Under the pieces are notes generated by a model. It saw only the letters and a list, made by a program, of their open reading frames with translations. It searched no databases and had not been told where the DNA came from. Both the position numbers and the translations under genes were made by a program. This document shows, in pieces, positions 11,026 to 64,000 of a stretch of DNA of 64,000 nt. This DNA comes from Candidatus Pelethousia sp. GTDB taxonomy: Bacteria > Bacillota > Clostridia > Christensenellales > CAG-138. Positions within the stretch are counted from its first letter, which is position 1; the number at the start of each line of letters is the position of its first letter. The stretch lies in the NCBI GenBank assembly GCA_034928145.1, contig JAYFPE010000016.1:6953-70952 (forward strand), given 5' to 3'.

Positions 11026-11043
11026 TAGGAGGAGAGAAAGACC

Positions 11044-12063
11044 ATGATTGAAGAGAAGATTCCCGTGATCATCGACACCGACCCTGGCGACGACGATGCC
11101 GTTGCCATACTCTGGGTCCTTGCCAACTCCCGCTTTGATGTAAAGGCCTGCACCGTAGGCTATGGGAACGCCGGCACGGAAAAGTGCGTGTGCAACATGC
11201 TGCGTATACTGGAGGTGGCGGGCAGAACGGATATCCCTGTGTATGCTGGCGCACACCGCCCCCTTTTGGGGCGGGCGGAAAACGCCGCCTGGATTCACGG
11301 GGAGGACGGATTGGGCGACGCAGGCTTCCCCCTGCCGGATGCGCAGCCTGCGCCGGGCTATGCGCCTGTGGAAATGATACGCCACGCAAAGGAATCCAAG
11401 GAGCCCGTGACCCTGCTGTGCCTTTCGCCCGTCACCAACGTAGCCCTGGCATACCTTTTGGACCCGACCTTTAAGGACCATGTCCGAGAGGTTCTCATTA
11501 TGGGCGGCGCGGTGCGCGTGCCGGGCAATGCCAGCCCCGGGGCCAGCGCCAATCTAAAGAACGATCCCTGGGCCGCGCAAATCGTCTACCGCTCGGGCAT
11601 GCGGGTAGTACAGCTAGGGCTGGATACCTGCAACAAAATGACGGAACTGGATGAGGATTGGGCCGCTTTGGAGGCCGCGAAAACGCCGGTAACGGATTTC
11701 ATCATTCGGATGCTGCGCTTCCGCCGGGAACAGGCTGTGCGCGTGATCACCGATCAGGCGGGCAATGTGCGGCGGCTCTCCCAGGCAGAGGAAATGCCCG
11801 ACCACGCAGGGGGTATAGGGCTCAACGATGTGGCCGCCACGGCTTACCTGATCGAACCCAATTGGTTTAAAACCCGAGAGGTTTATATCGACATCGACGC
11901 CGACTCCCTGTGCCCCGGCCGCACCGTGCCGGATATGCACGGCTTATGGGGTAAGGCGCCCAACGCGCGCCTGGCCTACGATGTGGATGGCCGCGCTGCG
12001 GTGGATCGGCTAATGAGCGACCTTATCGCCTTCCGTCCCCGCAATGGCCGCGTGTATTCGTAA
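11044..12063 (+). CDS. nucleoside hydrolase (IU-NH fold) paralog 4
   Basis: Motifs VIIDTDPGDDDA, WIHGEDGLGD, ANLKNDPWAA and GLNDVAATAYLIEP. Confidence 0.85.
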   Translation: MIEEKIPVIIDTDPGDDDAVAILWVLANSRFDVKACTVGYGNAGTEKCVCNMLRILEVAGRTDIPVYAGAHRPLLGRAENAAWIHGEDGLGDAGFPLPDAQPAPGYAPVEMIRHAKESKEPVTLLCLSPVTNVALAYLLDPTFKDHVREVLIMGGAVRVPGNASPGASANLKNDPWAAQIVYRSGMRVVQLGLDTCNKMTELDEDWAALEAAKTPVTDFIIRMLRFRREQAVRVITDQAGNVRRLSQAEEMPDHAGGIGLNDVAATAYLIEPNWFKTREVYIDIDADSLCPGRTVPDMHGLWGKAPNARLAYDVDGRAAVDRLMSDLIAFRPRNGRVYS

Positions 12064-12134
12064 GCTGTGCCGTAATCGTTAATTGACTCGCTTGGCTTTA
12101 TGAAGATTATGGGTGCTGGACAAGGCAAACAAAT

Positions 12135-12177
12135 AAAACGTAAAGCAGGCGGCATTCGGCCGCCTGCTTTACGTTTT
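12135..12177 (+). terminator. rho-independent terminator (bidirectional type) ending the hydrolase operon
   Basis: A perfect 19-bp stem (AAAACGTAAAGCAGGCGGC / GCCGCCTGCTTTACGTTTT) with a 5-nt loop, an A-tract on the 5' side and a T-tract on the 3' side. Confidence 0.8.
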
Positions 12178-12716
12178 GGAGTCATGATGCACGTTTTCCC
12201 GAAATGTTTATTCAGCATATCTACCGCAGGCCACTCCTTTTCCCCGGATAAATGCGCAACTTTACAGCGTGAATTGGATATCCGAAAACTCCGAAAACTT
12301 CCATGTGGCTTTCTCAAGGGCTTTCAGACTAGGGAGATGGCCAAATTCCGCCTGCGCATTGCCTTCATACATCTTTTCTTCCGCTCCCATTTCCGACCCC
12401 CCTTTGAATCCTCCCAAATCATTTCGTCCGCTTACATTCACCCTTCTCCCTATCACCATACAAACCCGCTTCCCAAACCGTTATGGACCTCGCAAAACCA
12501 AATTCATTGCTTCCTCCTTTCAGTTACACGGCTTCTTTCATTTCCTCCCGCATCATGGAATTGCTTTAAGCACCATGATTTATGGAACAGCTGGAAGACA
12601 TCTTCAATTCGCACCTAGTCCTCTTCTGTATAGGATTGCTTTAGTTCCATAGAAAGGTAATGGGACACGCTAAGGAAAAATAAGTATAGTACACAACGAA
12701 AATCAGGAGTGAGGGC

Positions 12717-18351: not shown

Positions 18352-20142
18352 ATGAGACTGTTGAAATCTTACGAGTTAAGGGAACTATATTTGGAGTTTT
18401 TCCGGCAGAAGGGCCACGCTATCATTCCTTCCGCATCCCTCATTCCGGAAAATGACCCCACCGTGCTTTTTACCACAGCGGGCATGCATCCCCTGGTGCC
18501 CTATCTCATGGGCGCCAAGCACCCGGCGGGCGTGCGGCTGGCGGATGTGCAAAAGTGCGTGCGCACCGGTGATATCGACGAGGTGGGCGACGCCTCCCAT
18601 TGTACCTTCTTCGAAATGCTGGGCAATTGGTCTTTGGGCGATTATTTCAAAAAAGAATCCATCGCCTTTTCCTGGGAATTCCTCACGGATGAAAAATGGC
18701 TCGGCATCGATAAAGATAAGCTTTCCTTCACCTGCTTCGAGGGCGATGCGGATGCGCCTCGCGATACGTTTTCCCACGATTGCTGGGTGAATATGGGCGC
18801 GGATCCTTCCCACATCTACTACCTGGGCAAGCGCCATAACTGGTGGGGCCCGGCCGGCGTGACCGGCCCTTGCGGCCCGGATACCGAGATCTTCTACGAT
18901 ACGGGCAAGCCCAAGTGCTCCCCGGATTGCAACCCGGCCTGCTCCTGCGGCAAATTCCTTGAGATCTGGAACAACGTCTTCATGGAATACAACAAAAAGG
19001 CGGATGGAACCTTCGAGCCCCTCTCCCAGCAAAACGTGGATACCGGCATGGGCCTTGACCGCACCGTGGCCACCTTGCAGGGCGTGGAGAGCGTATACGA
19101 TACCGACGCCTTTACCGGCATCATCGCAGCCATTGCGCGCCTCTGCGGCAAAAGCTATCAGGATGGCGGCGAGACCACCCGCGCCTTCCGCATCGTGGCG
19201 GATCATATCCGCTGCGCTACCTTTATGCTGGGCGACCCAAGGGGCGTAACGCCCTCCAATGTTGACCAGGGCTATATCCTTCGCCGGCTGATCCGCCGGG
19301 CCATCCGCTACGCCATGCAGCTGGGCATGCCCGAAAGCAGCCTTTCCCAGGTAGCGGAAGCAGTGATCGCCCAATACGGCGAGCCCTATCCCGAATTGAT
19401 CGAGAACAGGGAGAAGGTTCTCTCCGAGCTGGCAAAGGAAGAGCAGCGTTTCCAGCGCACGCTCAAGAACGGCATGCGGGAATTCGAGCGCATCAAGGGC
19501 GGCTTCCCGGATGGCATGATCGACGGCGTTACGGCCTTCCATCTTTATGATACCTTTGGCTTCCCTGTGGAGTTTACGCAGGAGATGGCCACGGAAAACG
19601 GCCTCACGGTCGATCTTGAAGGCTTCCGCAAAGCCTTTGACGAGCACCAGGAAAAATCCAAGGCCGGCGCGGAGCAGCGCTTTAAAGGCGGCCTGGCGGA
19701 TACCAGCGATCAAACGGCCCGGCTGCACACGGCCACCCACCTGTTGCAGGCGGCGCTGCGCAAAGTTTTGCAGGATGACACCATCAGCCAGCGTGGCTCC
19801 AACATCACGGCGGAGCGCCTGCGCTTCGACTTCAGCTTTGGCCGCAAGCTCACGCCCGAGGAATTGCAGGCGGTTGAGGCCGAGGTGAACCGTTATATCG
19901 CGGCCGCGGCCCCCATCTCCTGGCAGGAGATGACCGTGGACGAGGCCAAAGCCCAGGGTGCTGTGGGCCTCTTTGGCGATAAATACGGCGAGCGCGTCAA
20001 GGTATATACCATGGGCGGCTTTTCCAAAGAGATTTGCGGCGGCCCCCACGCCGAGAACACCGGTGATTTACACCACTTCACCATCAAAAAGGAAGAGGCC
20101 AGCAGCGCGGGCGTGCGCCGCATCAAGGCCGTCTTAGATTGA
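18352..20142 (+). CDS. alaS: alanine--tRNA ligase, short form (about 596 aa; no C-Ala domain, minimal editing core)
   Basis: AlaRS catalytic motifs: FTTAGMHP, KCVRTGDIDEVG, FFEMLGNWSLGDYFK, GPCGPDTEIFYD, LEIWNNVFMEYN and VDTGMGLDR. Editing-site zinc motifs HTATH and CGGPH are present, and the protein ends about 35 aa after the latter. The ATG at 18352 has better RBS spacing than the GTG at 18343. Confidence 0.85.
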   Translation: MRLLKSYELRELYLEFFRQKGHAIIPSASLIPENDPTVLFTTAGMHPLVPYLMGAKHPAGVRLADVQKCVRTGDIDEVGDASHCTFFEMLGNWSLGDYFKKESIAFSWEFLTDEKWLGIDKDKLSFTCFEGDADAPRDTFSHDCWVNMGADPSHIYYLGKRHNWWGPAGVTGPCGPDTEIFYDTGKPKCSPDCNPACSCGKFLEIWNNVFMEYNKKADGTFEPLSQQNVDTGMGLDRTVATLQGVESVYDTDAFTGIIAAIARLCGKSYQDGGETTRAFRIVADHIRCATFMLGDPRGVTPSNVDQGYILRRLIRRAIRYAMQLGMPESSLSQVAEAVIAQYGEPYPELIENREKVLSELAKEEQRFQRTLKNGMREFERIKGGFPDGMIDGVTAFHLYDTFGFPVEFTQEMATENGLTVDLEGFRKAFDEHQEKSKAGAEQRFKGGLADTSDQTARLHTATHLLQAALRKVLQDDTISQRGSNITAERLRFDFSFGRKLTPEELQAVEAEVNRYIAAAAPISWQEMTVDEAKAQGAVGLFGDKYGERVKVYTMGGFSKEICGGPHAENTGDLHHFTIKKEEASSAGVRRIKAVLD

Positions 20143-52005: not shown

Positions 52006-52045
52006 GCAAAGCGCGGAGGCGAAAAGCCTCCGCGCTTTTGCATGG
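52006..52045 (+). terminator. rho-independent terminator after the symporter gene
   Basis: Stem GCAAAGCGCGGAGGC / GCCTCCGCGCTTTTGC with a GAAAA loop. It also marks the start of the lower-GC island. Confidence 0.75.
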
Positions 52046-52347
52046 GATTTAGCACAATAATCCGCCGGTTATGCTGATACGCGTGCAAACCACTAGTTTA
52101 ACTAGCGGCTTTAATTTGACTCCAGAGATTTTTGGAGCCCGCTTTGTAACGAAGCGATAGGCGAGCACACAAAATTGTGCCACATTTCGCGCGAAAACAT
52201 TCGGAATTGACCTAATACCGCCTGCTGAACTATGATTTGGTTATGCCGCTGAGGCAAAAGTAGCGCTTCAAAGGCATGGGCGGAAGAGAATTTGGCGCCA
52301 GCATTTTATAAGCCCATCAGTCTGATTGTACACGCAATATCAAATCA

Positions 52348-52833
52348 ATGGAATGGCAGGATGTTGAGATGAGAGAAAAACTAGTCAGAAGCAGCGATAT
52401 CGAGCTTGGAATAAAAGCGAATAACTGGGAAGAGGCGATAAGTGCGGCCGGTGAGATCATGGTTCGCAACGGCCATGTAACGGCGGAATACGTGCGGGCC
52501 ATGCAGCAGGCAGTCAACGAGCTGGGGCCATATATTGTAATCGCCCCCGGCCTGGCGATGCCGCATGCGAACAGCGCGCAAGGCGTTAAGCAGAGCGCAA
52601 TCAGCATTATTACGCTGGAGTCACCTGTGGCGTTCGGACATAAGGCCAATGATCCTGTTCATATGATTGTGGGCGTTGCGGGAATGAACGACGGGCAGCA
52701 CATGGATATCATCCAGGCCATCGCATCGGTATTTGAGGAGGAGGGGGCGCTAGCGGCGCTGCTGAAGATGTGCGATAAGGAGACAATCGCGGAGATATTC
52801 AATCGATCAATTGAAGCCGGAAGGGAGGTGTAA
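52348..52833 (+). CDS. PTS EIIA component (ascorbate/mannitol-type EIIA_2)
   Basis: IVIAPGLAMPHANSAQG (phosphorylatable His) and DPVHMIVGVAG are present. The start may be ATG 52348 or 52369. Confidence 0.85.
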   Translation: MEWQDVEMREKLVRSSDIELGIKANNWEEAISAAGEIMVRNGHVTAEYVRAMQQAVNELGPYIVIAPGLAMPHANSAQGVKQSAISIITLESPVAFGHKANDPVHMIVGVAGMNDGQHMDIIQAIASVFEEEGALAALLKMCDKETIAEIFNRSIEAGREV

Positions 52834-52835
52834 CG

Positions 52836-53126
52836 ATGCTACGCGTGGTAACGATGTGCGCTTATGGAGTAGGCAGCAGCGTATTAATCAAGATGAATGC
52901 GCTCAAGGCGCTGAAGGAGCTGAATGTGGAGGCTACGGTTGAAGTCTGCGATATTATAAGCGGCAAAGGCATTGCCAAGACCGCGGATGTCATCCTGATC
53001 GGCAAGGAGCTGGCAGGAACGTTGGGGTATATTGACGTGCCGGTGATTCAGATCGACAGCTTCGTCAATAAGCAGGAGATGCGCGAGAAGCTCGAAGCGT
53101 TTTGCAGGGAGAAGGGACTCCCATAA
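52836..53126 (+). CDS. PTS EIIB component (ascorbate-family, UlaB/SgaB-like)
   Basis: 96 aa, with LRVVTMCAYGVGSSVLIK (active-site Cys). Confidence 0.8.
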   Translation: MLRVVTMCAYGVGSSVLIKMNALKALKELNVEATVEVCDIISGKGIAKTADVILIGKELAGTLGYIDVPVIQIDSFVNKQEMREKLEAFCREKGLP

Positions 53127-53154
53127 AAGCTTGGAGAATCGGAGGTAATATGGA

Positions 53155-53931
53155 ATGGACAGGTTTCTCAATAAGGTGGTTGTCGTTACCGGCGCCGCGC
53201 AGGGCATTGGGGAAACGGTATCTCTGGATTTCTATAATGAAGGCGCGACGGTATGCATGTTAGACTTGAATCTGGATGCGCTTGAGCAGGTCGCCGCGAC
53301 AAAGCAGGCTGATCGTTCGCAGATGTGCCTGTGGAAGGTGGATATCAGCGACAGCGAACAGGTTAACGCTGTATTTGGCGCCATCGGCGCAAGATTCGGC
53401 AGGATTGATATCCTTGTCAACAATGCGGGCGTGATAAAACGATGCCTGGCTGAGGAGGCGACTGATGCGCAAATCCGCCTCATGGTGGATGTGAACCTGC
53501 TGGGCCCGATGTTTTGTACCCGCGCAGCAATTCCGCACATGAAAAATATAGGCGCCAATATTGTGAACGTATCGTCGATCTTGGCGACCTTTCCAAACAC
53601 GGGCGCCGGCGTATACGGCGCGACGAAGGCCGGCATAATGGTTCTGACCAGGGTCTGGGCGGCAGAATTGGCGCCATACGGCATCCGCGTGAACTGCTAC
53701 GCGCCGGGCATTGTGGAAACGCCCATGTCGGCGGACGTGATCCAAACGCGGGCCGAATCCAAGCTAGCGCAGATTGCGCTGCGCAGGTTCGGAAAAACGC
53801 AGGATATTTTCAATCTGATTAGTTTTTACTGCTCGGATCAGGCCAGCTATATTACCGGCCAAAGCATCGGCATCGATGGCGGAATCTGGGCAACGCAGAC
53901 ACCGAACGCGGCATGGAGGCTCAACGATTAG
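53155..53931 (+). CDS. SDR-family oxidoreductase
   Basis: The cofactor motif is VVVVTGAAQGIG, with NNAG and a catalytic YGATKAG. Confidence 0.9.
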   Translation: MDRFLNKVVVVTGAAQGIGETVSLDFYNEGATVCMLDLNLDALEQVAATKQADRSQMCLWKVDISDSEQVNAVFGAIGARFGRIDILVNNAGVIKRCLAEEATDAQIRLMVDVNLLGPMFCTRAAIPHMKNIGANIVNVSSILATFPNTGAGVYGATKAGIMVLTRVWAAELAPYGIRVNCYAPGIVETPMSADVIQTRAESKLAQIALRRFGKTQDIFNLISFYCSDQASYITGQSIGIDGGIWATQTPNAAWRLND

Positions 53932-53964
53932 ATCTATAATTAAGGGAGAGAAAGGGAAAGAACC

Positions 53965-55227
53965 ATGGAGACATTCATGAACGTTGTTACCAGCGTATTT
54001 GGTAACGCAACCTTTCTGCTGGGCATTATTGCACTGATCGGCTTGCTCATCATGAAGGAGTCCTTTGGCGATGTACTGACGGGTACGATCAAGACGATGC
54101 TAGGGTACCTCATCATCAGCATTGGTTGCGGCGCCATCTCACCGACCTTGACGCCCATGACCGAGATGATCCGATATGCGATGGGCGTGGAAGGCGTTGT
54201 ACCAAACTGCCTCCCGGCCTTCGGCGTTTCCATGGCGCAATTCGGCACGGAGACTACGTTGATTTTTGTTATCGGTTTCGCGCTGAACCTGCTGCTGGCT
54301 AAATTCACGAAACTGAAATTTGTGGCGTTAACGGCGCATCTGCAGCTGTTCTGGGCGGGATTTATGGCCATCCTGCTCGCGGCGTTCGAGTTTTCCACCC
54401 TCGGGATCATTCTCATTGGCGGCATTACGGCCGGCTTGTATTATTGGCTTGCGACTGCGGTATCCTATCATTATGTAAAAGGCATCACCACCGAGCATGC
54501 CAACTTTGTTCCCAGCGTCGTTGGCTTGGTAATTGCCGGTGAGGTCGGCCGCGTTTTTCCGAAGGATAGCAAATCCACCGAAGAGATCGAATTTCCCAAG
54601 TCCCTCAACTGGTTGAAGGATACCATCGTCTCCGTTTCCGTTATCATGCTGTTGGTGAACGTGATCCTCGCCATCATTGCCGGCGTCGGCTTTGTGCAGG
54701 AGATGGCCGGCGCTACTCCCTGGGTCGTATACCTGATTACCGTGTCGCTGACCTTTGGTGGTTCCATCGCCGTTATCCTCTATGGCGTGCGCACACTGTT
54801 GGGGGCTCTTGTTCCGGCGTTCTCGGGCATTTCCGAGAAGGTTCTGCCCAATGCGAAGCTGGGACTCGATTATCCTACGGTGTATCCCTATGCGGGTACT
54901 GCAGCTATGCTGGGATTCCTGATGCATCTACTGGGCTCCATTGTCGCTTCCCTGCTCATGGTCGTCACCGGCTTTACGCCCTTGGTAATCCCCGGCGTTC
55001 AGATCAACTTTTTTGAAGGCGCTATCGTTGGCGTTTATGCTAACGCCCGGGGCGGTGTAAAGAACGTTATTCTCAGTTCCCTCCTCGTAGGCTTTATCCT
55101 CCAGTTTGGCGTTTCGCTGATCTTCCCGTATACCGGCGCCCTGATTCCGCACAGCGTTGCCTATGAAGCTATCGACTATAACACGTTTGGGCTGGTGCTG
55201 GCCAAAGTTCTCGCCATCCTCCATTAA
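53965..55227 (+). CDS. PTS EIIC component (ascorbate-family, UlaA/SgaT-like)
   Basis: A 420-aa polytopic membrane protein in an operon with the matching EIIA and EIIB. Sequence character fits SgaT-type EIIC. Confidence 0.8.
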   Translation: METFMNVVTSVFGNATFLLGIIALIGLLIMKESFGDVLTGTIKTMLGYLIISIGCGAISPTLTPMTEMIRYAMGVEGVVPNCLPAFGVSMAQFGTETTLIFVIGFALNLLLAKFTKLKFVALTAHLQLFWAGFMAILLAAFEFSTLGIILIGGITAGLYYWLATAVSYHYVKGITTEHANFVPSVVGLVIAGEVGRVFPKDSKSTEEIEFPKSLNWLKDTIVSVSVIMLLVNVILAIIAGVGFVQEMAGATPWVVYLITVSLTFGGSIAVILYGVRTLLGALVPAFSGISEKVLPNAKLGLDYPTVYPYAGTAAMLGFLMHLLGSIVASLLMVVTGFTPLVIPGVQINFFEGAIVGVYANARGGVKNVILSSLLVGFILQFGVSLIFPYTGALIPHSVAYEAIDYNTFGLVLAKVLAILH

Positions 55228-55373
55228 TTTAGGGTGGGATGCCATTGCGGGAGATACGCAAATGAAAGAAGCGGCGGGGCATACGCCGGGCCTGCATATG
55301 CCCCTTGGCTTGCCGCCTATGGTTGCGCCATGCTATCCTGTTCGAAAGGAAAGGCAGGACTAGCCGGGAGGTG

Positions 55374-57512
55374 ATGGAAATGCTGTACAAGCGCTGTATC
55401 GAATTGATGCAATACCTGATTTCACTGCATCAGCCCGTTACGATTGCCGCTTTGGCGCAAAAATTCGGCGTAAGTATGCGTACAGTCCGCAACGATATGG
55501 AGAACGTTGACAGGTGGCTCTCAACGTTTACCCGGAAGCGGATTCAACGGGTTCCCCGCATCGGCGTTTCTCTTGAGGACGAGGATGGCGGCATCCGTGC
55601 CTGCCTGGCCCGCAACGACGTCCCTCAATACGTTGCCAATAAGCAGGAACGCAAGTATTGCATTCTCGGCATGCTGCTGGGCGACAAAAAGACAAATATC
55701 GCGGAGCTGGCCCGGCTCTTTGACGTCAGCCAGACGACTATCTCCACGGACATGCGCGAAGTCAAGCAATGGCTGGCGGACAAGCAGATTCATCTGGAAA
55801 CGGGGCCGCATCAAGGCATCTTTATCCAGGATTCGGAAGGCGATATCCGGCGCGGCTTTGTCATGCTCCTAAGGGATATCCTGGAGACGTGGGCCAAGCA
55901 AAAGGAGCTGATCGAAAAGCGCTTTGTGCAATGCGCGGAGGCGCTAGATTTCTATAGACTGCCGGATTCCTTTCGCGAGGCCTTTAGCCGCTGGCAGGAT
56001 AAGATCATCCTCGCCATCGAGGAGCTGAAAACCAGTGCCGACGCGGTCATTTCGGATGGCGGATTCTGCTTTATGTGGGAATGCCTGCTGGTTTCCCTGG
56101 CGATGATCCTGGAGAAGCGCAATTTGGATGCGGAGTCGATCGCGGCGCTTAAAACGCTGGAAAGCCGCGAAAAGAGCCTCATGGTGGCAATGGAGCAAAT
56201 CCTGGAAAGGGTTTTCGACATCGAAATCCCAAAAGAAGAATTGTATTATCTGGCGGCTGTTTGGCAGTCGCTCCGCAAGTTCGGCGCGAACTTTCAGGTA
56301 GGCGTGGATTATGTGCTGCTCGCGAAGGAGTTGATTCGAAGAATTCAGGAACAATTGGAGGGTGATCGAACCTACGATGAAGAAACCGTTGTGGACATCG
56401 CAACGCACCTGTACCTGATGCACTACCGGCTGCTCCTGAACACGCCCATTGAGAGAAACGACGCTTTGAACGACATCATTAGCGAGTTCCCGGATGCATG
56501 CGAGGCGTCCCGGCGGGCACTGCTGGGGACGCTAAAGGACTTTGTAACGCCGAAAAACAAAGCCGCCTGTGAAGCGGAGGCCCCTTATATCGCCATGCAT
56601 ATCATCGTGGGGTTCTATAAACACACCATTTTGCAGGATGATAAGCGGGATGTGGTCCTGGTGTGTGGCAGTTCCGTCGCAACCTCCAAGATATTGGAAA
56701 ACCGGCTGAATGCGCTTTTTTCCAATATAAATGTAGTAGCGACAATGTCTTATAACGAATTTCTGGCCAATGCAGGCGCACTGCCGTGCGATGTGGTAAT
56801 TTCCACCATACCGTTGGAAAGTGCGAGATATCAATGTATTACCGTTAGCCCCTTGCTGAAAAACGAAGATATCAACCGGCTGATGAACGTGTTCGTTTCT
56901 AGGGCCTATGAGCTCGAGGTCAATACTTATATCGGCGCAACGATGAACATCATTACCCGCGCTTTGGATTTTTCACCGGAGAAGAAGCTGCAGCTGACCA
57001 TCCGCCTGGTTCAGGAGATAGACGGCGAGGTGCGCAAACTCAAATACCAGCGGGGAGGACGCCTTTGCGATACATTGACTTCCCAAACCATCCGTACGGG
57101 CGTTTCTACCCCGGACTGCGCCCAAGCGGTTCGCCAGGGCGCTAACATTTTGGCGGATGCCGGCCTGATCACGCAGAAGGATGTTTCGCAACTGATACGC
57201 GGATTTCGCCGATTCGGCAAGAATGTGGTAATCGACAAGGGCGTGGCCATGCCGCACCTGCTGGCGCCGCAGATTAACATGCCCTGCATGAGCCTGATGG
57301 TGCTGGACAAGCCTGTGGAATTCCATAACGAAGCCAATGATCCGGTCTATGTGGTGCTGACGTTGGTCACCAACAGCAGCATCGCACACATCGGCATCAT
57401 TGAAGATATTATTGACCTAATGAACGATTCACGGCGCAAGGCCGCGCTGATGCACGCGGGCAGCGTACAAGAGGTTCTCAACCTAATTTCATTTAACGAT
57501 ACTAAGGGGTAA
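55374..57512 (+). CDS. PRD-domain transcriptional activator (MtlR/LicR/ManR type: HTH - PRD - PRD - EIIB-like - EIIA-like)
   Basis: An N-terminal winged-HTH (TIAALAQKFGVSMRTVRNDM) and a second HTH (NIAELARLFDVSQTTISTDM) are followed by central PRD-sized helical repeats. The C-terminal EIIA_2 domain carries VAMPHL. ATG 55374 or 55380 is preferred over the listed 55305. Confidence 0.8.
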   Translation: MEMLYKRCIELMQYLISLHQPVTIAALAQKFGVSMRTVRNDMENVDRWLSTFTRKRIQRVPRIGVSLEDEDGGIRACLARNDVPQYVANKQERKYCILGMLLGDKKTNIAELARLFDVSQTTISTDMREVKQWLADKQIHLETGPHQGIFIQDSEGDIRRGFVMLLRDILETWAKQKELIEKRFVQCAEALDFYRLPDSFREAFSRWQDKIILAIEELKTSADAVISDGGFCFMWECLLVSLAMILEKRNLDAESIAALKTLESREKSLMVAMEQILERVFDIEIPKEELYYLAAVWQSLRKFGANFQVGVDYVLLAKELIRRIQEQLEGDRTYDEETVVDIATHLYLMHYRLLLNTPIERNDALNDIISEFPDACEASRRALLGTLKDFVTPKNKAACEAEAPYIAMHIIVGFYKHTILQDDKRDVVLVCGSSVATSKILENRLNALFSNINVVATMSYNEFLANAGALPCDVVISTIPLESARYQCITVSPLLKNEDINRLMNVFVSRAYELEVNTYIGATMNIITRALDFSPEKKLQLTIRLVQEIDGEVRKLKYQRGGRLCDTLTSQTIRTGVSTPDCAQAVRQGANILADAGLITQKDVSQLIRGFRRFGKNVVIDKGVAMPHLLAPQINMPCMSLMVLDKPVEFHNEANDPVYVVLTLVTNSSIAHIGIIEDIIDLMNDSRRKAALMHAGSVQEVLNLISFNDTKG

Positions 57513-57517
57513 TTGCC

Positions 57518-57781
57518 ATGATACAAAAGGAAATAACCGTTATGAATGCAAGCGGGCTGCACGCTCGCCCAGCCGCAGAATTTGCCAATGCCGCGCAGGG
57601 CTTCGACGCTTCCATTGAAATATCCTTTGGCGGGAAAAAGAAAAATGCCAAAAGCATAATCGGTATCATGGCGTTGGGAATCAAGCAGGGATGCACCTTT
57701 ACCCTCACGGTTGCGGGAGAGGATGAGCGAAAGGCGGCGGAGTGCCTGGAAGCCTTGGTTCGATCTAACTTCGGTCAGTAA
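57518..57781 (+). CDS. ptsH: phosphocarrier protein HPr
   Basis: 87 aa, with NASGLHARPAAEF (His-15 region) and AKSIIGIMALG (Ser-46 region). Confidence 0.9.
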   Translation: MIQKEITVMNASGLHARPAAEFANAAQGFDASIEISFGGKKKNAKSIIGIMALGIKQGCTFTLTVAGEDERKAAECLEALVRSNFGQ

Positions 57782-57791
57782 GGAGCGCGGT

Positions 57792-59522
57792 ATGAAGGGA
57801 ATTGCGGTTTCACCCGGTTTGGCCGTCGCCCCGCCGCTGCTGCTGGCCGCGCAAAGCGGCGTGCGGCACCGTGACATCTCACAGGCGGAGGCGGAGACCG
57901 AAATACGGCGCTTCCGGTGCGCGGCGGCGGGATTAGGCCAGCAAATGCGGCAAGCGCTGGAGAACGCGCGACAGGAGCTATCCAAAGACGAAAAAGATAT
58001 ACTGAACATGCATATATCCTTGCTGCAGGACCAGGCTATGATCGAAGACACGGTATCGATCATAGCGAAGGAGCATATCGCTGCGGAATGTGCGCTGGAT
58101 CAGAATGTGAAATCCATACTGGACGAGTTGGAAAGCCTTAACGATGCCTGCCTTCGAGAGCGGGCGGTGGATATTCGCGATGTCTACGGGAAACTGCTCG
58201 GCAAGCTTACCAAGGCGGAGCGGCTGGATTTATCCGCCCTTCAGGAGGACGTCATCGTGGTTGCGCACGAACTGGAACCATCTGAGTTTATCGCTGCTGA
58301 CAAATCCCGCCTCAAAGGCATTGCCTGTGAACAGGGCGGGCCAACATCCCACACGGCAATCCTTGCGCGCAATTATGGCATCCCTGCCGTATTCGGCCTT
58401 GCCGGGCTGATGGCGGCCTGCCGCAGGGCTACGCTGATAGCGGTGGATGGATCGGCGGGCACCGTCACGATCGATCCGGATGAGGGCGCGCGTCAAGCGC
58501 TGGAAGCGGCGATAGAGAAGCGGGCCGTCCTTCATCAAGAGCTGGCAGGCATGATACACTGCGAAGGCGAAACCATTGACGGGAAGAAAGTGGCGGTTTA
58601 TACCAACATTGCCTCCGCGGGGGAGGCCGAACGCGCGGTCGCCCAAGGCGCGCAGGGCGTTGGTCTATTTCGCACCGAATTCGTTTTCATGGATCGGAAC
58701 CAGCCGCCCTCAGAGGAGGAACAGTATGCAATTTACCGCCAGGCGGCGGAAGTGCTTAAGGGCAGGCCGATTATTATCCGCACGCTGGACGCGGGCGGGG
58801 ATAAGCGAATCGGCTACCTGAACACGGTCAGGGAAGGGAATCCCTTCCTAGGCAGCCGTGCGATCCGCCTTTGCCTCCGCAACCCCATGCTGTTTAAAAC
58901 GCAGTTGCGCGCGCTGCTGCGTGCCGGTGCATACGGAAATGTGCGGATTATGTATCCGATGATTTCTTCTTTGGAAGAATTGGCGCAGGCAAGTGCGCTG
59001 CTGGATGAATGTAAACATGAACTAGCCGCAGAAGGAAGGCCGTTTGCAGTTGATGTTCCCGTAGGGATCATGGTGGAGATACCTTCCGCAGCTATTAGCG
59101 CGGATCTATATGCGGGGCATGTAGATTTCTTCTCTATCGGCACAAACGACCTGATCCAATATACCCTGGCCGTGGATCGCGCCAACCCGGAGATTCAGCC
59201 TCTATATGACGCGTATAATCCCTCGGTTCTGCGGCTGATCGACAATACGGTTTGCTGCGCGCGGCGAGCCGGAATAGAAGTGGGCATATGCGGAGAGATG
59301 GGAAGTAACCTGCTTCTCGTGCCTATCTTTGCAGCCATGGGCGTGACTGAACTCTCCGTGAATTTGGCCAGCATTGGCAAGATCAAATACCTGCTTAGCA
59401 GGATCGATGCCAAAGCCGCCCGGCCGGCGCTGGACGAGCTGCTCCAAATGGAGCGAGGCACACAGATACGGGCCTATCTTGAGGCGCAGAGCCGCAGTTG
59501 GGGTACGGATTTCCTGCTTTAA
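57792..59522 (+). CDS. ptsI: phosphoenolpyruvate--protein phosphotransferase (PTS Enzyme I)
   Basis: ATG at 57792 gives MKGIAVSPGLAV. GGPTSHTAILARNYGIPAV carries the phospho-His, and GVGLFRTEFVFM, IRTLDAGGDK and SIGTNDLIQYTLAVDR are present. Confidence 0.95.
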   Translation: MKGIAVSPGLAVAPPLLLAAQSGVRHRDISQAEAETEIRRFRCAAAGLGQQMRQALENARQELSKDEKDILNMHISLLQDQAMIEDTVSIIAKEHIAAECALDQNVKSILDELESLNDACLRERAVDIRDVYGKLLGKLTKAERLDLSALQEDVIVVAHELEPSEFIAADKSRLKGIACEQGGPTSHTAILARNYGIPAVFGLAGLMAACRRATLIAVDGSAGTVTIDPDEGARQALEAAIEKRAVLHQELAGMIHCEGETIDGKKVAVYTNIASAGEAERAVAQGAQGVGLFRTEFVFMDRNQPPSEEEQYAIYRQAAEVLKGRPIIIRTLDAGGDKRIGYLNTVREGNPFLGSRAIRLCLRNPMLFKTQLRALLRAGAYGNVRIMYPMISSLEELAQASALLDECKHELAAEGRPFAVDVPVGIMVEIPSAAISADLYAGHVDFFSIGTNDLIQYTLAVDRANPEIQPLYDAYNPSVLRLIDNTVCCARRAGIEVGICGEMGSNLLLVPIFAAMGVTELSVNLASIGKIKYLLSRIDAKAARPALDELLQMERGTQIRAYLEAQSRSWGTDFLL

Positions 59523-59805
59523 CGTCAGCGGGGAGCGCGGCTTACCCTTCGCCTATGTAATCCACTTGAATAACGGAAATCTAAAAGCGCCTTCGCCTAG
59601 CCTGCGGTTGTTCAAGAAAGCCGTTGGATCGGCGGTATGAAATCTGGCGCAAGGCGGACCAGCAGACCCCGGCATTTGGGCCTGCCGGTTTGTTTTCCTT
59701 GGGCAATCAGCCTGCTCATACGGCTAAATCGCCGGGCTGGAGAAGGCCATGGCAAAAGCCGCGATTCATGCCAGGCTCGATGCTGGCAAGCTCAATATAT
59801 TATAC

Positions 59806-59833
59806 TTGACAACATAAAAAAATGTGATATTAT
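59806..59833 (+). promoter_or_regulatory. sigma-A-type promoter (TTGACA - 16 nt - TGaTATTAT extended -10)
   Basis: A consensus -35 lies at 59806-59811 and an extended -10 at 59825-59833, 50 nt upstream of the DeoC-like ATG. Confidence 0.55.
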
Positions 59834-59838
59834 GATAT

Positions 59839-59856
59839 TGTAAATATATGTTTACA
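59839..59856. promoter_or_regulatory. candidate operator: 18-bp palindrome TGTAAATATATGTTTACA
   Basis: The inverted repeat matches at 8 of 9 positions per half and lies immediately downstream of the -10 element. Confidence 0.4.
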
Positions 59857-59882
59857 TCATTACAACAAAAAGGGGTGCTTAC

Positions 59883-60548
59883 ATGGTTGACTTGGAATTG
59901 GCGAAACGGATGATATTGGCGCCGCTGACAACGGATACGACGGCGCAAGATATCGAACAGTTTGCAAAGGACCTTACGGGAATCGAAATTTACTCCGTAA
60001 TCGTAGATGAATACTATATCTCTTTGGCCAAGGAACTGATGCCCGGTCGAAAGGTTGGCACCATTGCTTCCTATCCCTTTGGCGGCTTTACCACCGAGAT
60101 GAACGTGAAGCTTATAGAGCAGGCGGTCGCTCTGGGTTGCAGCGAGGTGGATATCTGCCCCAAATTTAACTATTTAAAATCGGGTAAATACGAGCTGGCC
60201 AAGCCTGACCTGCGCAGGATCGTCGAGGCGGCGCAGGGTAAATTGGCGATCGTCGCGGTGCCGCAGGTGGGGCAGATGACGCTTAACGAGCTGGAAAAGA
60301 ACTGCAAGTTGTTCTTGGAGTGCGGCATCCGTATCATCAAGACCAACTCTGGCTTCGGCCAAGGTGAGAGCCAGTTCGAGCATATCCAGTTTGTGCGCCG
60401 GATATTCGGCAAGGATATCGAGATCGAAGTATCCGGCGGCGTGCGCACTAGGGAGGATGCACGCCGGTATCTGGAACTGGGCGCGGATCGGATTCATTCC
60501 AGCACCTGGAAATCCGTGATAGGTTGGGAAGGAGAGGCGGCAAAATGA
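59883..60548 (+). CDS. DeoC/LacD-family class I aldolase, divergent paralog
   Basis: A DeoC-like TIM barrel with CSEVDICP and the Schiff-base-type IIKTNSGFG. Other conserved lysines appear substituted (see findings). Confidence 0.7.
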   Translation: MVDLELAKRMILAPLTTDTTAQDIEQFAKDLTGIEIYSVIVDEYYISLAKELMPGRKVGTIASYPFGGFTTEMNVKLIEQAVALGCSEVDICPKFNYLKSGKYELAKPDLRRIVEAAQGKLAIVAVPQVGQMTLNELEKNCKLFLECGIRIIKTNSGFGQGESQFEHIQFVRRIFGKDIEIEVSGGVRTREDARRYLELGADRIHSSTWKSVIGWEGEAAK

Positions 60549-61207
60549 AAAGAAACGAAATCGCGAAACGAATCGACCATACGCAGCTTAAGCCGAACGT
60601 ACCGCTGGAGCAGATCGAGCTGATCTGCCTGGAAGCCAGGCAGTACGGTTTTGCAACCGTGGCGATCCACCCTGCCTATATTGCCGACGCAGTTAAATAC
60701 CTAGAGGGCTCGGATGTGGGCGTCGTGGCCGCGTTGGCGTTCCCCTATGGCTCGCTGAGCGCCGAAATGAAAGCTTTTGAAATAGCCGACGCGCTCAGAG
60801 CGGGCGCGACCGAATGCGACTTTGTGATTAATGTCGGCGCCTTGCGCAGCGGCGATTACGATGCGCTCAAGCGCGAAGGCGAGGCTTGCCGCGCCGCCTG
60901 CCCGAATCATATCCTAAAGGCGATCCTCGAGGTGTGCCTGCTCGATGACGAACAAATTGCCAAGGCCTGCGGAATATACGCGGCTTGCGGCGTCGATTTT
61001 GTCAAGACGTCTACCGGCTTTATGGAGCCTCCCACACCGCGCGTTGTCAAGCTGATGCATGATGCCGTAGCGGGCACAGGCGTTAAGGTAAAGGCTGCGG
61101 GCGGCATCCGCAACGCCGCCGATGCCAAGGCGATGATCGAGGCGGGCGCGGCAAGGCTGGGCACCAGCGCTGGCGTAAGCATTGTAGAAAGCTGGGTAGA
61201 GGAATAA
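60545..61207 (+). CDS. deoC: deoxyribose-phosphate aldolase
   Basis: ATGA overlap with the upstream gene. IDHTQLKP, ECDFVINV, ILKAILEV, DFVKTSTGF and KVKAAGGIR together give the full DERA catalytic set. Confidence 0.85.
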   Translation: MKRNEIAKRIDHTQLKPNVPLEQIELICLEARQYGFATVAIHPAYIADAVKYLEGSDVGVVAALAFPYGSLSAEMKAFEIADALRAGATECDFVINVGALRSGDYDALKREGEACRAACPNHILKAILEVCLLDDEQIAKACGIYAACGVDFVKTSTGFMEPPTPRVVKLMHDAVAGTGVKVKAAGGIRNAADAKAMIEAGAARLGTSAGVSIVESWVEE

Positions 61208-61262
61208 TTCCTCTATCCTAGCCAGCGCTAGGCGTTTAAAGATGCAAAGGAAGGAGCGGCAT

Positions 61263-62828
61263 ATGAGTAAAGCAATTCTGGCCCACGATCTGGGGACAAC
61301 AGGCAACAAAGCTTCGATTTATGGGGAAAATGGAACGCTGCTGGCAACAAAATACTGCCCGTATGAAACCTACTATCCGCATGCCGATTATGTGGAGCAG
61401 AACCCGGCGGATTGGTGGGACGCTATCTGCCGCTCAACGCGGGAGGTGATCGAGAAAGCCGGCGTTTCCAATAAGGATGTTTGTGCGGTATCGTTCAGCG
61501 GCCAGATGATGGCGCTGCTACCGGTTTCTCAAACCGGCGAGATATTAATGGACCGGGCAATCATCTGGGCTGATTCGCGCAGCGTGGATGAGAGCGCTTA
61601 CATCGAACAAAGGTTGGGCTGGAAACGCTTCTATGACATTACCGGCGGCGGTATGCCCATTGCCTTATACGGGGTATCTAAGGCCCTGTGGATCAAAAAT
61701 CATTATCCTGCGGTATACAAAAACACATATAAGTTTATGTCCGTTAAAGATGCCATGATACAGCGGCTTACAGGGCATTTTTGCACGGAGTATTCCGATG
61801 CCTCCAACATCGGCCTGCTGGATATCGAAAAACGCTGCTGGAGCCAGGAGATCATACAGGCTGCCGGCTTGGATAGCGCTAAGTTGGTAGAGGAGATAAA
61901 GCCCTCCACCGGCATCGCTGGCCACATCACCAAGGCAGCGGCTTCGGCTACCGGCCTGATGGAAGGCACGCCTGTAATATGCGGCGGCGGGGATGTGCCC
62001 TGCGCGGCGCTGGGCGCCGGCATCATCCGGGAGGGAAACGCCTACAACTGTATCGGCTCCGCCTCCTGGTTCGCCGTGGCTACCCGTAGCCCGCTGATCG
62101 ATTATGATTCAAGGCCGTTTAACATTTGCCATGTTGTGCCGGATATGTGCGTATCCCAAATGGCGACGTTTTCGGCCGGCGTGGCGCACCAGTGGGTTAC
62201 CCAGAACCTGTGTGATGCGGAGGCGATGCAAAGCCGGGAAAGCGGAGAGAACGTATACGCCGTATACGATGCCAAGGCGTCCAAGGTGCCCGCAGGTTCA
62301 AACGGCGTGCTATTCCTGCCCAATATGCGCCCGGGCGGCGCGCCGCATAATAACTTGGATGATCGCGGCGCCTTCGTGGGCCTTAAGCTGAGCAACACCA
62401 AAGACGACATGCTGCGCGCGGTGCTCGAAGGCGTTTCCTTCAACATCCGCATCATGTGCGAAGATATTGAAAAGAAGACGGGCCTGCGTTTCTCCCAAGT
62501 GGATTTCATCGGCGGCGGCTCCAGGAGCGAAATATGGAGCAATATTCAGGCCTCCATCATGAACCGCGAGTTTAGAACCTTACAGCTGCAACAGGAGGCG
62601 AATTCCTTTGGCGCGGCTATGATCGCGGGCGTTAGTTTAGGCATCTATCCCGATTTTCCTGCGGCGGCCCAGCGCTTTGTTAAGGCCGGTAAAGTATTTC
62701 GTCCCCATGCGGCGGACACGGCTGTTTACGACCGCCTATATCCCATCTACAAGCAGCTATACGATGCCCTAAGCCCTATTAACACCCAGCTCAAGAATGT
62801 TTTGCCGGAAGAGATCCGGAGAGTATAG
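61263..62828 (+). CDS. FGGY-family carbohydrate kinase (xylulokinase-like)
   Basis: ATG at 61263 follows AAGGAAGGAG. LAHDLGTTGNKASIY is the N-terminal actin-fold phosphate motif, and GGGSRSEIW lies in the C-terminal domain. Confidence 0.85.
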   Translation: MSKAILAHDLGTTGNKASIYGENGTLLATKYCPYETYYPHADYVEQNPADWWDAICRSTREVIEKAGVSNKDVCAVSFSGQMMALLPVSQTGEILMDRAIIWADSRSVDESAYIEQRLGWKRFYDITGGGMPIALYGVSKALWIKNHYPAVYKNTYKFMSVKDAMIQRLTGHFCTEYSDASNIGLLDIEKRCWSQEIIQAAGLDSAKLVEEIKPSTGIAGHITKAAASATGLMEGTPVICGGGDVPCAALGAGIIREGNAYNCIGSASWFAVATRSPLIDYDSRPFNICHVVPDMCVSQMATFSAGVAHQWVTQNLCDAEAMQSRESGENVYAVYDAKASKVPAGSNGVLFLPNMRPGGAPHNNLDDRGAFVGLKLSNTKDDMLRAVLEGVSFNIRIMCEDIEKKTGLRFSQVDFIGGGSRSEIWSNIQASIMNREFRTLQLQQEANSFGAAMIAGVSLGIYPDFPAAAQRFVKAGKVFRPHAADTAVYDRLYPIYKQLYDALSPINTQLKNVLPEEIRRV

Positions 62829-62842
62829 AAAGGAGCAAATTC

Positions 62843-64000
62843 ATGAAAAACAAATTGATGGCTGTCATCACCATGATTCTTGTCCTGGCATTGGCGGCCG
62901 GCTGCGCCGGCAGCGGCTCGACGACTGCGGCGCCTGCCGTGGCGGAAGCGGGCGCGCCCGCTACCAGCGCCCAGCCTGCCGCCAATGCGGCGAACGAAGC
63001 GCAAGCACCCGCGGATACCGCAGGCGAGCTGCGCTATAATCCGGATACGGATCCCGCCAGCGACATCGTTATCTACCAAGGCGCCTGGAACGACTGGTGG
63101 GTAAATACCCCTAGGCTAGGCGAGTACCTTGCACAGCCCCCCTACACCATCGGCTTTATCACCGGCTGGCGCGGCGAGGCTTGGCAGGAGCAAATGTATG
63201 CCGAGTTCGAGCGGGAGGTAGAGCGCTCGTCCCTGATTTCAGATGTGGTATATATGGATAGCGCGTCCGATGTGGATACGCAGATCGCCAACCTGGAGGG
63301 CATGTTCGCCATGTGGCAGGCCGGCAAACTCAGTGCGATCATCGTGGATGCGCTGGATGCCAATGCCATTACCGCAACGATTACAAAGATATATGATGCA
63401 GGCTGCCCCATCATCTTGTTCAATAACGCCATCAATTCTACCAAGTATAGCATGATCGTTTCCGACGACCCCGGTGCTTACGGCATAAATGGGGCCGAAT
63501 GGCTGGCCAAGGAACTTAACTACGAGGGAAACATTTTCTTTTTCCGTGGCGTTCAGGGCTATCCCATCGACGAAGGCCGTAGCGGCGGCGCGCTAAAGGT
63601 GTTTGAGAAGTATCCCGGCATCAATATCGTGGCCATCGAGTATTGCAACTGGGCTGCCGACCAAGCTAAATCCGCCTTCTTCAACATGTATGCCGCGCAT
63701 CCCGATTTTGACGGCATTTACTCTGTTGGCGGGCAGATGTCCCTAGCCGTTATCGAAGCGATGGAGGAGCTGGGCCTGAACCCCGGAGACTATGCCCACG
63801 CCTCCGAGGATAACAACGGCTTCCTGCAAAAGTGCCTGGAATACAATATTCCCGCCTGCGCCAACTGCCATCCCTCTATTCAGAGCGCGATCTCGGTCGT
63901 GATGACGGAAATGCTGCTGCAGGGCTATCCCGTGCCGAAGCTGTACTATTTCCCTTCGCCCTATATCACCAGCGAGGAGTTCTCCGATTATGTGCGTTAT
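62843..64000 (+). CDS. sugar ABC transporter substrate-binding lipoprotein (type I periplasmic-binding fold), 3' end outside window
   Basis: My own translation from ATG 62843 (AGGAG RBS) stays open to the window end (386 codons). It has a signal peptide with lipobox LAAGC and an Ala/Pro linker, then a ribose/galactose-binding-like core (IIVDALDANA, FFFRGVQGYPIDEGR, VGGQMSLAVIEAM). It is not in the supplied ORF track because it has no stop. Confidence 0.75.
   Translation, partial: MKNKLMAVITMILVLALAAGCAGSGSTTAAPAVAEAGAPATSAQPAANAANEAQAPADTAGELRYNPDTDPASDIVIYQGAWNDWWVNTPRLGEYLAQPPYTIGFITGWRGEAWQEQMYAEFEREVERSSLISDVVYMDSASDVDTQIANLEGMFAMWQAGKLSAIIVDALDANAITATITKIYDAGCPIILFNNAINSTKYSMIVSDDPGAYGINGAEWLAKELNYEGNIFFFRGVQGYPIDEGRSGGALKVFEKYPGINIVAIEYCNWAADQAKSAFFNMYAAHPDFDGIYSVGGQMSLAVIEAMEELGLNPGDYAHASEDNNGFLQKCLEYNIPACANCHPSIQSAISVVMTEMLLQGYPVPKLYYFPSPYITSEEFSDYVRY

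Follow-up and report, generated by a model that had tools for sequence, protein, structure and literature searches.

In the stretch of 64,000 nucleotides analysed here (Candidatus Pelethousia sp., contig JAYFPE010000016.1, positions 6,953 to 70,952; hereafter the window), the last segment, 52046-64000, holds 11 genes on the + strand that form two consecutive units. The first encodes a phosphoenolpyruvate:sugar phosphotransferase system (PTS) of the L-ascorbate family, in which the gene of a short-chain dehydrogenase/reductase (SDR) is set between those of Enzymes IIB and IIC (EIIB and EIIC). The second encodes two paralogues of deoxyribose-5-phosphate aldolase (DERA, or DeoC), here called ald1 and ald2, together with an FGGY-family sugar kinase and the binding protein of an ATP-binding cassette (ABC) importer. 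Gene identities were assigned by Pfam and NCBIfam profile searches with NCBIfam equivalog cut-offs applied, and every gene listed in the original prediction, which was made from the letters of the window, is present, intact and on the + strand. The reading that we favour, with confidence only modestly above even, is a locus for the catabolism of a single small compound (a sugar, deoxysugar or polyol), or of a close set of such compounds, with two entry routes that converge on the DERA-family pair.

The first unit lies behind a promoter-like site at 52207..52236 (+), with TTGACC and TATGAT 18 nt apart and 10/12 positions agreeing, a consensus match only. The EIIA gene (52348..52833; mannitol/fructose/ascorbate type, PTS_EIIA_2, PF00359, 111 bits) retains the active-site His in an AMPHA motif, while the EIIB gene (52836..53126; PTS_IIB, PF02302, 57.7 bits) retains the N-terminal Cys (VVTMCAYG); the NCBIfam ascorbate models closest to them give scores of 102.9 bits against a cut-off of 187 for EIIA and 30 against 138 for EIIB. 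The classical SDR between EIIB and EIIC (53155..53931; adh_short, adh_short_C2) carries a TGxxxGxG motif, the NSYK tetrad and an Asp ending strand β2 (VCMLDLN). Under the established cofactor rule for this family an Asp at the end of β2 marks a preference for NAD(H), so that the residue indicates an NAD(H)-type enzyme, presumably a dehydrogenase acting on the phosphorylated PTS product. In NCBIfam the SDR exactly reaches the cut-off of the glucose-1-dehydrogenase subfamily model (215 vs. 215 bits), with butanediol, acetoin and diacetyl reductases among the next-best models. EIIC (53965..55227; PF03611, 283.6 bits) belongs to the L-ascorbate (UlaA/SgaT, EIIC-GAT) family and scores below both NCBIfam ascorbate-IIC equivalog cut-offs (341.6 vs. 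380). The following activator (55374..57512) contains HTH_11, Mga HTH, PTS regulation domain (PRD) and C-terminal PTS_EIIA_2-like segments in that order, an arrangement that fits the PRD-activator class (MtlR/LicR/ManR). The unit is completed by HPr (57518..57781; PF00381, 98.5 bits; TIGR01003, 97.8 bits), with His15 (GLHARPA) and Ser46 (AKSIIG) motifs, and by Enzyme I (EI), the PEP-protein phosphotransferase (57792..59522; TIGR01417, 531 bits vs. a cut-off of 341.7). A full phosphorelay (EI, HPr, EIIA, EIIB and EIIC) is encoded with strong scores, the His/Cys motifs of EIIA, EIIB and HPr having been read directly, and because HPr and Enzyme I are carried inside the locus the PTS cassette is self-sufficient. 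A terminator-like hairpin follows at 59669..59688 (+; CCGGCA...TGCCGG, then TTTGTTTT), identified by pattern match only.

The second unit has its own sigma-70-type promoter at 59806..59833 (+), composed of TTGACA, a 16-nt spacer and TATTAT with an upstream TG (extended -10). With 11/12 matches this is the best site in the 15 kb scanned, which bears out the consensus promoter predicted to precede these genes. Directly after the -10 element lies an operator-like 18-bp palindrome (59839..59856, +; TGTAAA-N6-TTTACA, TGTAAATATATGTTTACA). A similar palindrome, TGTAAAGACATGATTACA, occupies the equivalent place in the homologous locus of a Spirochaetia metagenome-assembled genome (MAG), about 30 nt upstream of position 10001 in L001 (L-numbers denote the homologous loci compared), suggesting a dedicated repressor encoded elsewhere; no candidate regulator gene for the palindrome was found in the window. 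The promoter regions of the two units share no convincing repeats or motifs, so the two entry routes may be induced separately, and between 49 and 64 kb no riboswitch or RAT-type (ribonucleic antiterminator) RNA element was matched in Rfam at E ≤ 0.1. The ald1 gene (59883..60548; the DeoC-like, DERA-fold ‘C-type’ paralogue) scores 117.5 bits with TIGR00126 against a cut-off of 117.3, and ald2 (60545..61207; the canonical short DERA, ‘A-type’) scores 204.4 against the same cut-off. Their reading frames overlap by 4 nt in the window and in L001, L002 and L007, an overlap compatible with a complex or with consecutive steps. The FGGY kinase (61242..62828; FGGY_N, FGGY_C) is 60-65% identical to the kinase in the same position in L001, L002 and L007; it falls below the NCBIfam cut-offs for XylB (354.8 vs. 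380) and autoinducer-2 (AI-2) kinase (238 vs. 528), and its PDB relatives are distant (best about E 1e-45 to 1e-51), none of them a characterised close relative. Finally, the binding protein (62843..64000, running past the end of the window) is a Peripla_BP_4-like lipoprotein of a CUT2-type (ribose/polyol) ABC importer, with a signal peptide and lipobox (LALAAGC) read in the sequence, and its best PDB relatives are of ribose, threitol and xylitol type (E 1e-20 to 1e-14).

The two aldolase paralogues diverge at the residues on which DERA catalysis depends. In an alignment with E. coli DERA, ald2 keeps every residue aligned to E. coli D16, T18, D102, K137, K167 and K201. ald1 retains the Schiff-base lysine (Lys153), the Asp/Asn and the GG and Ser motifs, while the second catalytic lysine (the K201 position) is replaced by an invariant Glu and the positions equivalent to D16 and K137 are hydrophobic; direct alignment of ald1 with ald2 shows the same substitutions. 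ald1 thus lacks the DERA catalytic set, with Pfam DeoC below threshold, and although it uses the DERA scaffold it should not be filed as a DERA. The AlphaFold model of ald1 (pLDDT, the model confidence score, 88.5) aligns with DERA structures at Foldseek TM scores of 0.89-0.90 (Bacillus halodurans DERA, about 29% identity), and the PDB matches of both ald1 and ald2 are DERA entries only. The ald1 family has 36 invariant residues and is very rare, its relatives amounting to only 26 clusters (90% identity) among 5.8 billion proteins. A search of 1.84 billion 50%-identity representatives without a word index gives only about 2 full-length clusters that score like the ald1 family; the next matches are remoter paralogues, followed by ordinary DERAs.

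A tree of all DeoC-family genes in the loci compared resolves three types, all with the Schiff-base lysine. Canonical DERAs with the complete E. coli residue set comprise ald2 and each second gene of a pair; the PTS-linked first genes of the pairs have Met at the K201 position; and the ald1 type has Glu at K201 with hydrophobic residues at D16 and K137. As a Lys/Glu pair is the catalytic arrangement in other class I aldolases, such as 2-keto-3-deoxy-6-phosphogluconate aldolase and transaldolase, ald1 is probably an active enzyme with an altered reaction and not a pseudoenzyme. We also considered ald1 as an enzyme that self-condenses acetaldehyde to feed the SDR (a 1,3-butanediol-type sink) and judge this less likely, since ald1 retains the GG and Ser motifs, the phosphate-binding elements of DERA. 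Stacks of three to five DeoC-family paralogues, together with two FGGY kinases, occur in some genomes (L012 853-10006, L013 6522-8623, L007 6849-9909), and one DeoC subtype in these stacked loci has Ser/Cys in place of the Schiff-base lysine.

Homologous loci link the SDR of the first unit to aldolases of this kind. The SDR orthologue group is sharply bounded, with 50-74% identity to the window SDR before a fall to 44%, and 15 loci were informative: five independent contig groups (L018/19, L020/21, L022/23, L024-26 and L027/28, the first four labelled Tepidanaerobacter, Clostridia, Clostridium sp. and Lachnospiraceae) and ten metagenome loci with enough flank (L029-L037, L039). All 15 place the SDR orthologue (49-74% identity) between EIIB and EIIC and have a DeoC-like gene and a DeoC gene as a pair directly upstream of the PTS genes; wherever the flank of a PTS-type locus extends to IIB and IIC, the placement between them is kept. 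The gene order in the five contig groups is DeoC-like, DeoC, EIIA, EIIB, SDR, EIIC, S-adenosylmethionine (SAM) methyltransferase and PRD activator, with a DeoR-type regulator in place of the PRD activator in L020/L021, and the ten metagenome loci repeat this order as far as their contigs extend. Orthologous PRD regulators lie downstream of the PTS genes in L007, L022, L024, L027 and L030-L035, and HPr and Enzyme I are also inside the operon in L007, L020, L027 and L109. An Erysipelotrichaceae MAG carries the SDR orthologue as well, and in the plasmid database PLSDB no SDR orthologue above 43% identity was found. The SAM-dependent methyltransferase (about 180-190 residues) stands directly after EIIC at L020 12197-12736 and also in L018, L022, L024, L027 and L030-L036; neither the window nor L007 has it.

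Members of the same SDR group also occur apart from a PTS. In L042/L043 two aldolase genes (aldB, aldA), the SDR (46% identity) and an FGGY kinase stand in a row, and in L040/L041 the SDR (52% identity) and an FGGY kinase are accompanied by aldolase genes on the opposite strand; neither pair of loci has a PTS. In these loci, with the same SDR group, a DeoC pair and an FGGY kinase, the kinase can therefore replace the PTS. As kinase versions of the SDR/aldolase triad exist, we take the catalytic core to be SDR, DeoC-like protein and DERA, with the PTS and the transporter plus kinase as interchangeable feeders. The proposal, made from the window itself, that the SDR and a DERA-type cleavage belong to one pathway is strongly supported by these gene neighbourhoods, both the 15/15 PTS-type loci and the kinase variants.

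The second unit likewise has a life of its own, since the module of ald1, ald2, FGGY kinase, binding protein and ABC importer occurs without the PTS in Spirochaetia, Actinomycetota, Thermotogae, Aerophobetes and other MAGs. An ald2 orthologue comes after every ald1, and in almost all of these loci the FGGY kinase and CUT2 ABC genes follow or lie nearby; in an NC10 MAG the aldolase pair stands beside a major facilitator superfamily (MFS) transporter, and no kinase was detected there. Further downstream, related loci carry an ABC ATPase, two permeases and often an Lpd-like flavoprotein (TIGR01350, 458 bits), and further members often seen are a C_GCAxxG_C_C protein and GolD/DthD/KduD-like SDRs; from L001, L002, L007 and L109 only, we would expect genes of this kind in the window contig past 64 kb. 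The Aerophobetes version holds an aldehyde:ferredoxin oxidoreductase gene, which fits an aldehyde product. In the window the PTS unit stands directly upstream of the ABC-type module, and ald1/ald2 are the sole DeoC pair. One other lineage, a Christensenellaceae MAG represented by L007 and L109, shows this fusion too; the two loci count as one because their DNA is 96.8% identical. Protein identity between the window and L007/L109 runs from 51% (Enzyme I) to 74% (SDR, ald2), and in L007/L109 extra DeoC paralogues and a GntR regulator are inserted between Enzyme I and ald1. The two units are separable modules with promoters, and probably also regulators, of their own.

The whole region also stands apart in composition. 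On exact calculation GC content is 0.603 at 1-52045 and 0.544 at 52046-64000; in 1-kb steps it runs at about 0.58-0.67 before 52 kb and at 0.51-0.58 from there to the end of the window, and no 12-kb segment upstream of 52 kb lies under 0.579. GC at third codon positions (GC3) is 0.668 (standard deviation 0.02) for nine genes in 52-64 kb and 0.744 (standard deviation 0.06) for 44 other open reading frames (ORFs) (Mann-Whitney p = 1.4e-4). The shift is abrupt and coincides with the intrinsic terminator of the alanine:Na+ symporter gene (Na_Ala_symp) at 52009..52040 (+), the left edge of the lower-GC region, whose stem-loop can be read directly as GCGCGGAGGC-GAAAA-GCCTCCGCGC followed by TTTTGC. 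The drop is real but moderate, about 6 points. A fall in GC immediately after this terminator had been predicted, and that part holds; the contrast quoted for it was inflated because the reference taken, 45-47 kb, is the GC maximum of the window (0.66-0.675, within the AddAB genes at 44-48 kb). A uniform profile, named at the time as the outcome that would speak against a compositional island, is not what proper calculation gives. The ORF of lowest GC in the window lies elsewhere (12100-12618, +; GC 0.466, GC3 0.48, no Pfam match) and may be a small foreign insertion.

The lower GC, the GC of relatives (43-51%, with 43% in the related Christensenellaceae copy) and the integrase and insertion sequence (IS) neighbours of homologous operons together make it plausible that the locus was acquired horizontally. 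The PTS-type operon of a Clostridia MAG adjoins two tyrosine-integrase genes and S24/M78 peptidase genes (L020 3515-6082, L021 1111-2309), suggesting that it is carried on an integrative element. In Tepidanaerobacter IS110 and Transposase_20 genes split the aldolase pair from the SDR (L018 5455-9509), and in L002 an rve transposase (5576-6391) lies just upstream of extra DeoC genes, on the side where L007/L109 hold the PTS unit. Against acquisition, the difference is only 6 points and no mobility gene is seen in the window: no integrase is present among those window ORFs that were annotated (the right end of the region being beyond the window), a tRNA search across the window found no tRNA gene, and no flanking repeat was found in it. 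These absences would suit native variation, for instance in weakly expressed accessory genes inherited vertically in the Christensenellaceae, as would the joint layout shared with another Christensenellaceae lineage, the other low-GC spots in the 1-kb profile and a host that looks Christensenellaceae-like by its PrfA, which shares 87% identity with the protein from a Christensenellaceae MAG. The annotated upstream genes are mostly housekeeping (AddA/AddB, PrfA, PrmC, Sua5, LigT). We nevertheless regard native variation as rather unlikely, in view of the uniformly low GC3 of all nine genes, offset from the 44 others, the abrupt change at the terminator, the integrases or IS elements beside homologous operons elsewhere and the 43% GC of the related Christensenellaceae copy.

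How the two units might work together can be sketched from their contents. In route 1 the L-ascorbate-family PTS (EIIA, EIIB, EIIC), with HPr, Enzyme I and a controlling PRD-type activator all encoded in its own unit, would import and phosphorylate the substrate, after which the NAD(H)-dependent SDR would alter the oxidation state of the phosphorylated product. In route 2, expressed from its own strong promoter with the operator-like palindrome, the CUT2-type ABC importer would bring in a free compound for phosphorylation by the FGGY kinase. Both routes would hand a phosphorylated intermediate to the translationally coupled ald1/ald2, and the pathway would end in retro-aldol cleavage to glyceraldehyde-3-phosphate and a short aldehyde, most likely acetaldehyde. 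The basis of this scheme is observed (gene identities, conserved linkage, intact catalytic motifs and the DERA fold), and from it we infer that the routes converge, which way the SDR reaction runs, what is produced and what ald1 does. Convergence draws on the association of the SDR-PTS unit with a DeoC pair in all 15 informative loci, given that the window offers ald1/ald2 alone for that part.

The substrate is harder to name. Family libraries, the PDB and a full-text literature search yielded no substrate name, the family libraries giving nothing specific and database sources only generic names, and the PDB relatives of the binding protein, kinase and SDR are too distant for any specificity to be transferred. 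Our best guess, a tentative one, is 2-deoxy-D-ribose plus a polyol or lactone related to it by reduction or oxidation. The Spirochaetia homologue of the module adjoins deoD and a 5'-nucleotidase gene, while GolD/DthD-like SDRs in homologous modules and the distant likeness of the binding protein to threitol/xylitol binders hint at a polyol; neither a deoxypentose nor a polyol explains the obligatory SDR and second DERA paralogue. The original prediction could match the genes to no described pathway, and the full-text literature search agrees in finding no published description of the cluster; one paper that mentions DeoC and xylulokinase (PMC8346489) concerns encapsulin cargo and is irrelevant here. 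We entertain, at somewhat less than even weight, the broader proposal that the SDR, DeoC-like paralogue and DERA are the core of an undescribed catabolic pathway, in which the Schiff-base paralogue with Met/Glu for the second Lys would catalyse a non-DERA reaction and the substrate would be a natural compound so far overlooked as a carbon source for bacteria, such as a deoxy-pentonolactone, deoxypolyol or deoxy-ketose. Such a pathway would be widespread in gut Clostridia and would have moved as a self-sufficient PTS cassette.

The narrower version of our reading, in which the locus serves specifically for the use of DNA-derived 2-deoxy-D-ribose, has something to recommend it and is in our view still improbable. 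The ABC importer and an FGGY-type deoxyribokinase would produce deoxyribose-5-phosphate for cleavage by ald2 to glyceraldehyde-3-phosphate and acetaldehyde, with the PTS and SDR bringing in, as the 5-phosphate, a compound that differs from deoxyribose in redox state (2-deoxyribonolactone or deoxyribitol, for instance). ald2 qualifies fully as a DERA equivalog, the binding protein has its nearest relatives among ribose-binding proteins, and deoD and the 5'-nucleotidase gene beside the Spirochaetia homologue would fit such a role. UlaA-type carriers are known for a gamma-lactone substrate, and the model at whose cut-off the SDR scores has lactol/lactone interconversion as its named activity; both count for this version, as do the nucleoside ABC importer and four nucleoside hydrolases of the window, which would free pentoses. 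Known deoxyribose catabolism, however, can do without an SDR and without a second DERA paralogue, the 52-64 kb region contains no DeoK, DeoB or DeoA marker, the kinase is without a characterised close relative, and the nucleoside genes are 40 kb away.

These nucleoside genes form an uptake and hydrolysis cluster at 806-12063 (+) that encodes RpiB, a xylose-isomerase-like TIM barrel protein, a PnrA/Bmp-type binding protein, an ABC ATPase, two permeases and a BtpA-family protein, with four tandem paralogues of inosine-uridine-preferring nucleoside hydrolase at 7980-12063 (+). Free pentose released by the hydrolases may be a loose link to the kinase/DERA unit.

Several observations weigh against convergence of the two routes on ald1/ald2. 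If the node is deoxyribose-5-phosphate, known chemistry requires neither the SDR nor ald1. Elsewhere the PTS operons have their own aldolase pair, the first gene of which has Met at the second-lysine position, as well as the methyltransferase, and because both are absent here the PTS unit of the window may be a remnant that has lost its aldolases and not a partner of ald1/ald2. ald1 lacks three DERA residues (the equivalents of D16, K137 and K201) and might have a non-catalytic role. The binding protein is only 35-40% identical to its L001/L007/L109 counterparts, compared with 60-74% for the enzymes of those modules, possibly because the transporter was exchanged or its ligand specificity has shifted. 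Lastly, the terminator-like hairpin, the separate promoters and the different likely regulators mean that the two units could answer different compounds.

Some of these points suit another reading, two unrelated neighbouring operons: a polyol-type PTS, either passing its SDR product into central metabolism or decaying as a remnant, and an independent ABC/FGGY/DERA operon for another sugar, e.g. deoxyribose. The separate promoter of the second unit, with the hairpin before it and the palindrome after it, its solitary occurrence in many phyla, and the other-subtype aldolase pair and methyltransferase of PTS operons elsewhere, missing from the window, all suit such an arrangement. We think it unlikely nonetheless. 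The SDR-PTS unit was never found without a DeoC pair in the 15 loci with enough flank, and ald1/ald2 are the only pair available to it in the window. Moreover, all of the PTS genes are intact, and the adjacency of the two units has been retained in L007/L109 at 51-74% identity.

Less probable by a wide step is an Lsr-like system for autoinducer-2 (4,5-dihydroxy-2,3-pentanedione, DPD) or a similar 1-deoxy-dicarbonyl, with an LsrK-like kinase, LsrF-like Schiff-base enzymes and the SDR as a diketone reductase. The layout does recall lsr in its Peripla_BP_4 protein, FGGY kinase and DeoC/LacD-family enzyme, the kinase gives 238 bits with the AI-2 kinase model and E 1.7e-45 with PDB 5ya0 (LsrK), butanediol, acetoin and diacetyl reductases are among the next-best models of the SDR, and VOC/glyoxalase (vicinal oxygen chelate) genes occur in L001 and L013. 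The kinase, however, scores higher with the xylulokinase model and its 238 bits are far below the LsrK cut-off of 528, no LsrB is found among the 49 PDB relatives of the binding protein, no LsrG-like gene is present, and ald2 falls in the DERA subfamily and not in the LsrF/FbaB type. We rule out membership in the Lsr/AI-2 system on the kinase score, the absence of LsrB and LsrG and the DERA-type aldolases. A variant L-ascorbate system is the least credible of all and we reject it: although EIIA, EIIB and EIIC are nearest to the NCBIfam ascorbate models, all three are below the equivalog cut-offs, and neither among the 11 genes at 52-64 kb nor in loci L018-L028 is there a UlaG lactonase, UlaD decarboxylase or UlaE/UlaF epimerase, which agrees with the earlier conclusion, reached from the missing lactonase, decarboxylase and epimerases, that the substrate is not ascorbate by the known route.

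Apart from these genes, the window encodes at 18352-20142 (+) a 596-residue protein with alanyl-tRNA synthetase catalytic and tRNA_SAD domains; canonical alanyl-tRNA synthetases are longer.

Genomes of gut Firmicutes commonly hold orphan L-ascorbate-family PTS genes and additional DeoC paralogues, and the labels that these routinely receive, ‘ascorbate PTS’, ‘FabG’ and ‘deoxyribose-phosphate aldolase’, are wrong. The comparisons above point to such genes as one tightly conserved functional unit whose uptake modules swap (PTS, ABC plus kinase and, apparently, MFS), and ascorbate use should not be inferred from them in metagenomic profiling. The unit is a target for pathway discovery, with a substrate that Lachnospiraceae, Clostridium, Erysipelotrichaceae and Christensenellaceae would contest. 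It possibly also holds a new reaction on the DERA scaffold, which would be of interest for biocatalysis since DERA is an industrial enzyme.

Among known systems the first unit recalls the polyol PTS operons (gut/srl with its SDR SrlD, gat, and the pentitol PTS of Listeria and Lacticaseibacillus), in which the Enzyme II genes share a transcript with the gene of an NAD-dependent dehydrogenase for the phosphorylated product under a dedicated regulator, often of PRD type, and the dehydrogenase yields a glycolytic or pentose-phosphate intermediate. It shares with them the combination of Enzyme II genes, a dehydrogenase gene and a dedicated PRD regulator. It differs in that the carrier is of the L-ascorbate family, that no named polyol-phosphate dehydrogenase model is among the top NCBIfam matches of the SDR, and that the operon is invariably tied to two DERA-family genes. 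With E. coli ula (sga) it has in common a UlaA-type EIIC with separate EIIB and EIIA proteins. Unlike that operon it has the SDR between IIB and IIC, HPr and Enzyme I inside the locus and a PRD activator where ula has the DeoR-type UlaR, while UlaG/D/E/F are missing and the scores fall below equivalog cut-offs.

The second unit shares with the deo regulon a canonical DERA, ald2, and the expected products glyceraldehyde-3-phosphate and acetaldehyde. The locus lacks, however, a ribokinase-family DeoK, phosphopentomutase and nucleoside phosphorylase, its kinase being of FGGY type, and the divergent second DERA paralogue and the SDR are obligatory partners. The resemblance to Lsr consists of the CUT2 importer with a Peripla_BP_4 protein, the FGGY kinase and a Schiff-base enzyme of the DeoC/LacD superfamily; against it are set the PTS route, the DERA-subfamily aldolases, the missing LsrG and the kinase score far below the LsrK cut-off. 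The erythritol/threitol pathways of Mycolicibacterium smegmatis combine an ABC importer, SDRs and FGGY kinases and end in isomerases that lead to erythrose-4-phosphate. To these tetritol and pentitol pathways the locus is linked by its FGGY kinase, by the likeness of its binding protein to the threitol- and xylitol-binding 4rsm and 4rs3, and by SDRs downstream of homologous modules that match the GolD/DthD model; all of this similarity is distant, and DERA-type aldolases stand here where isomerases stand there. Viewed against these systems, the locus represents PTS/ABC sugar catabolism in an uncharacterised variant, whose core is the conserved set of SDR, DeoC-like protein and DERA, and is not categorically new.

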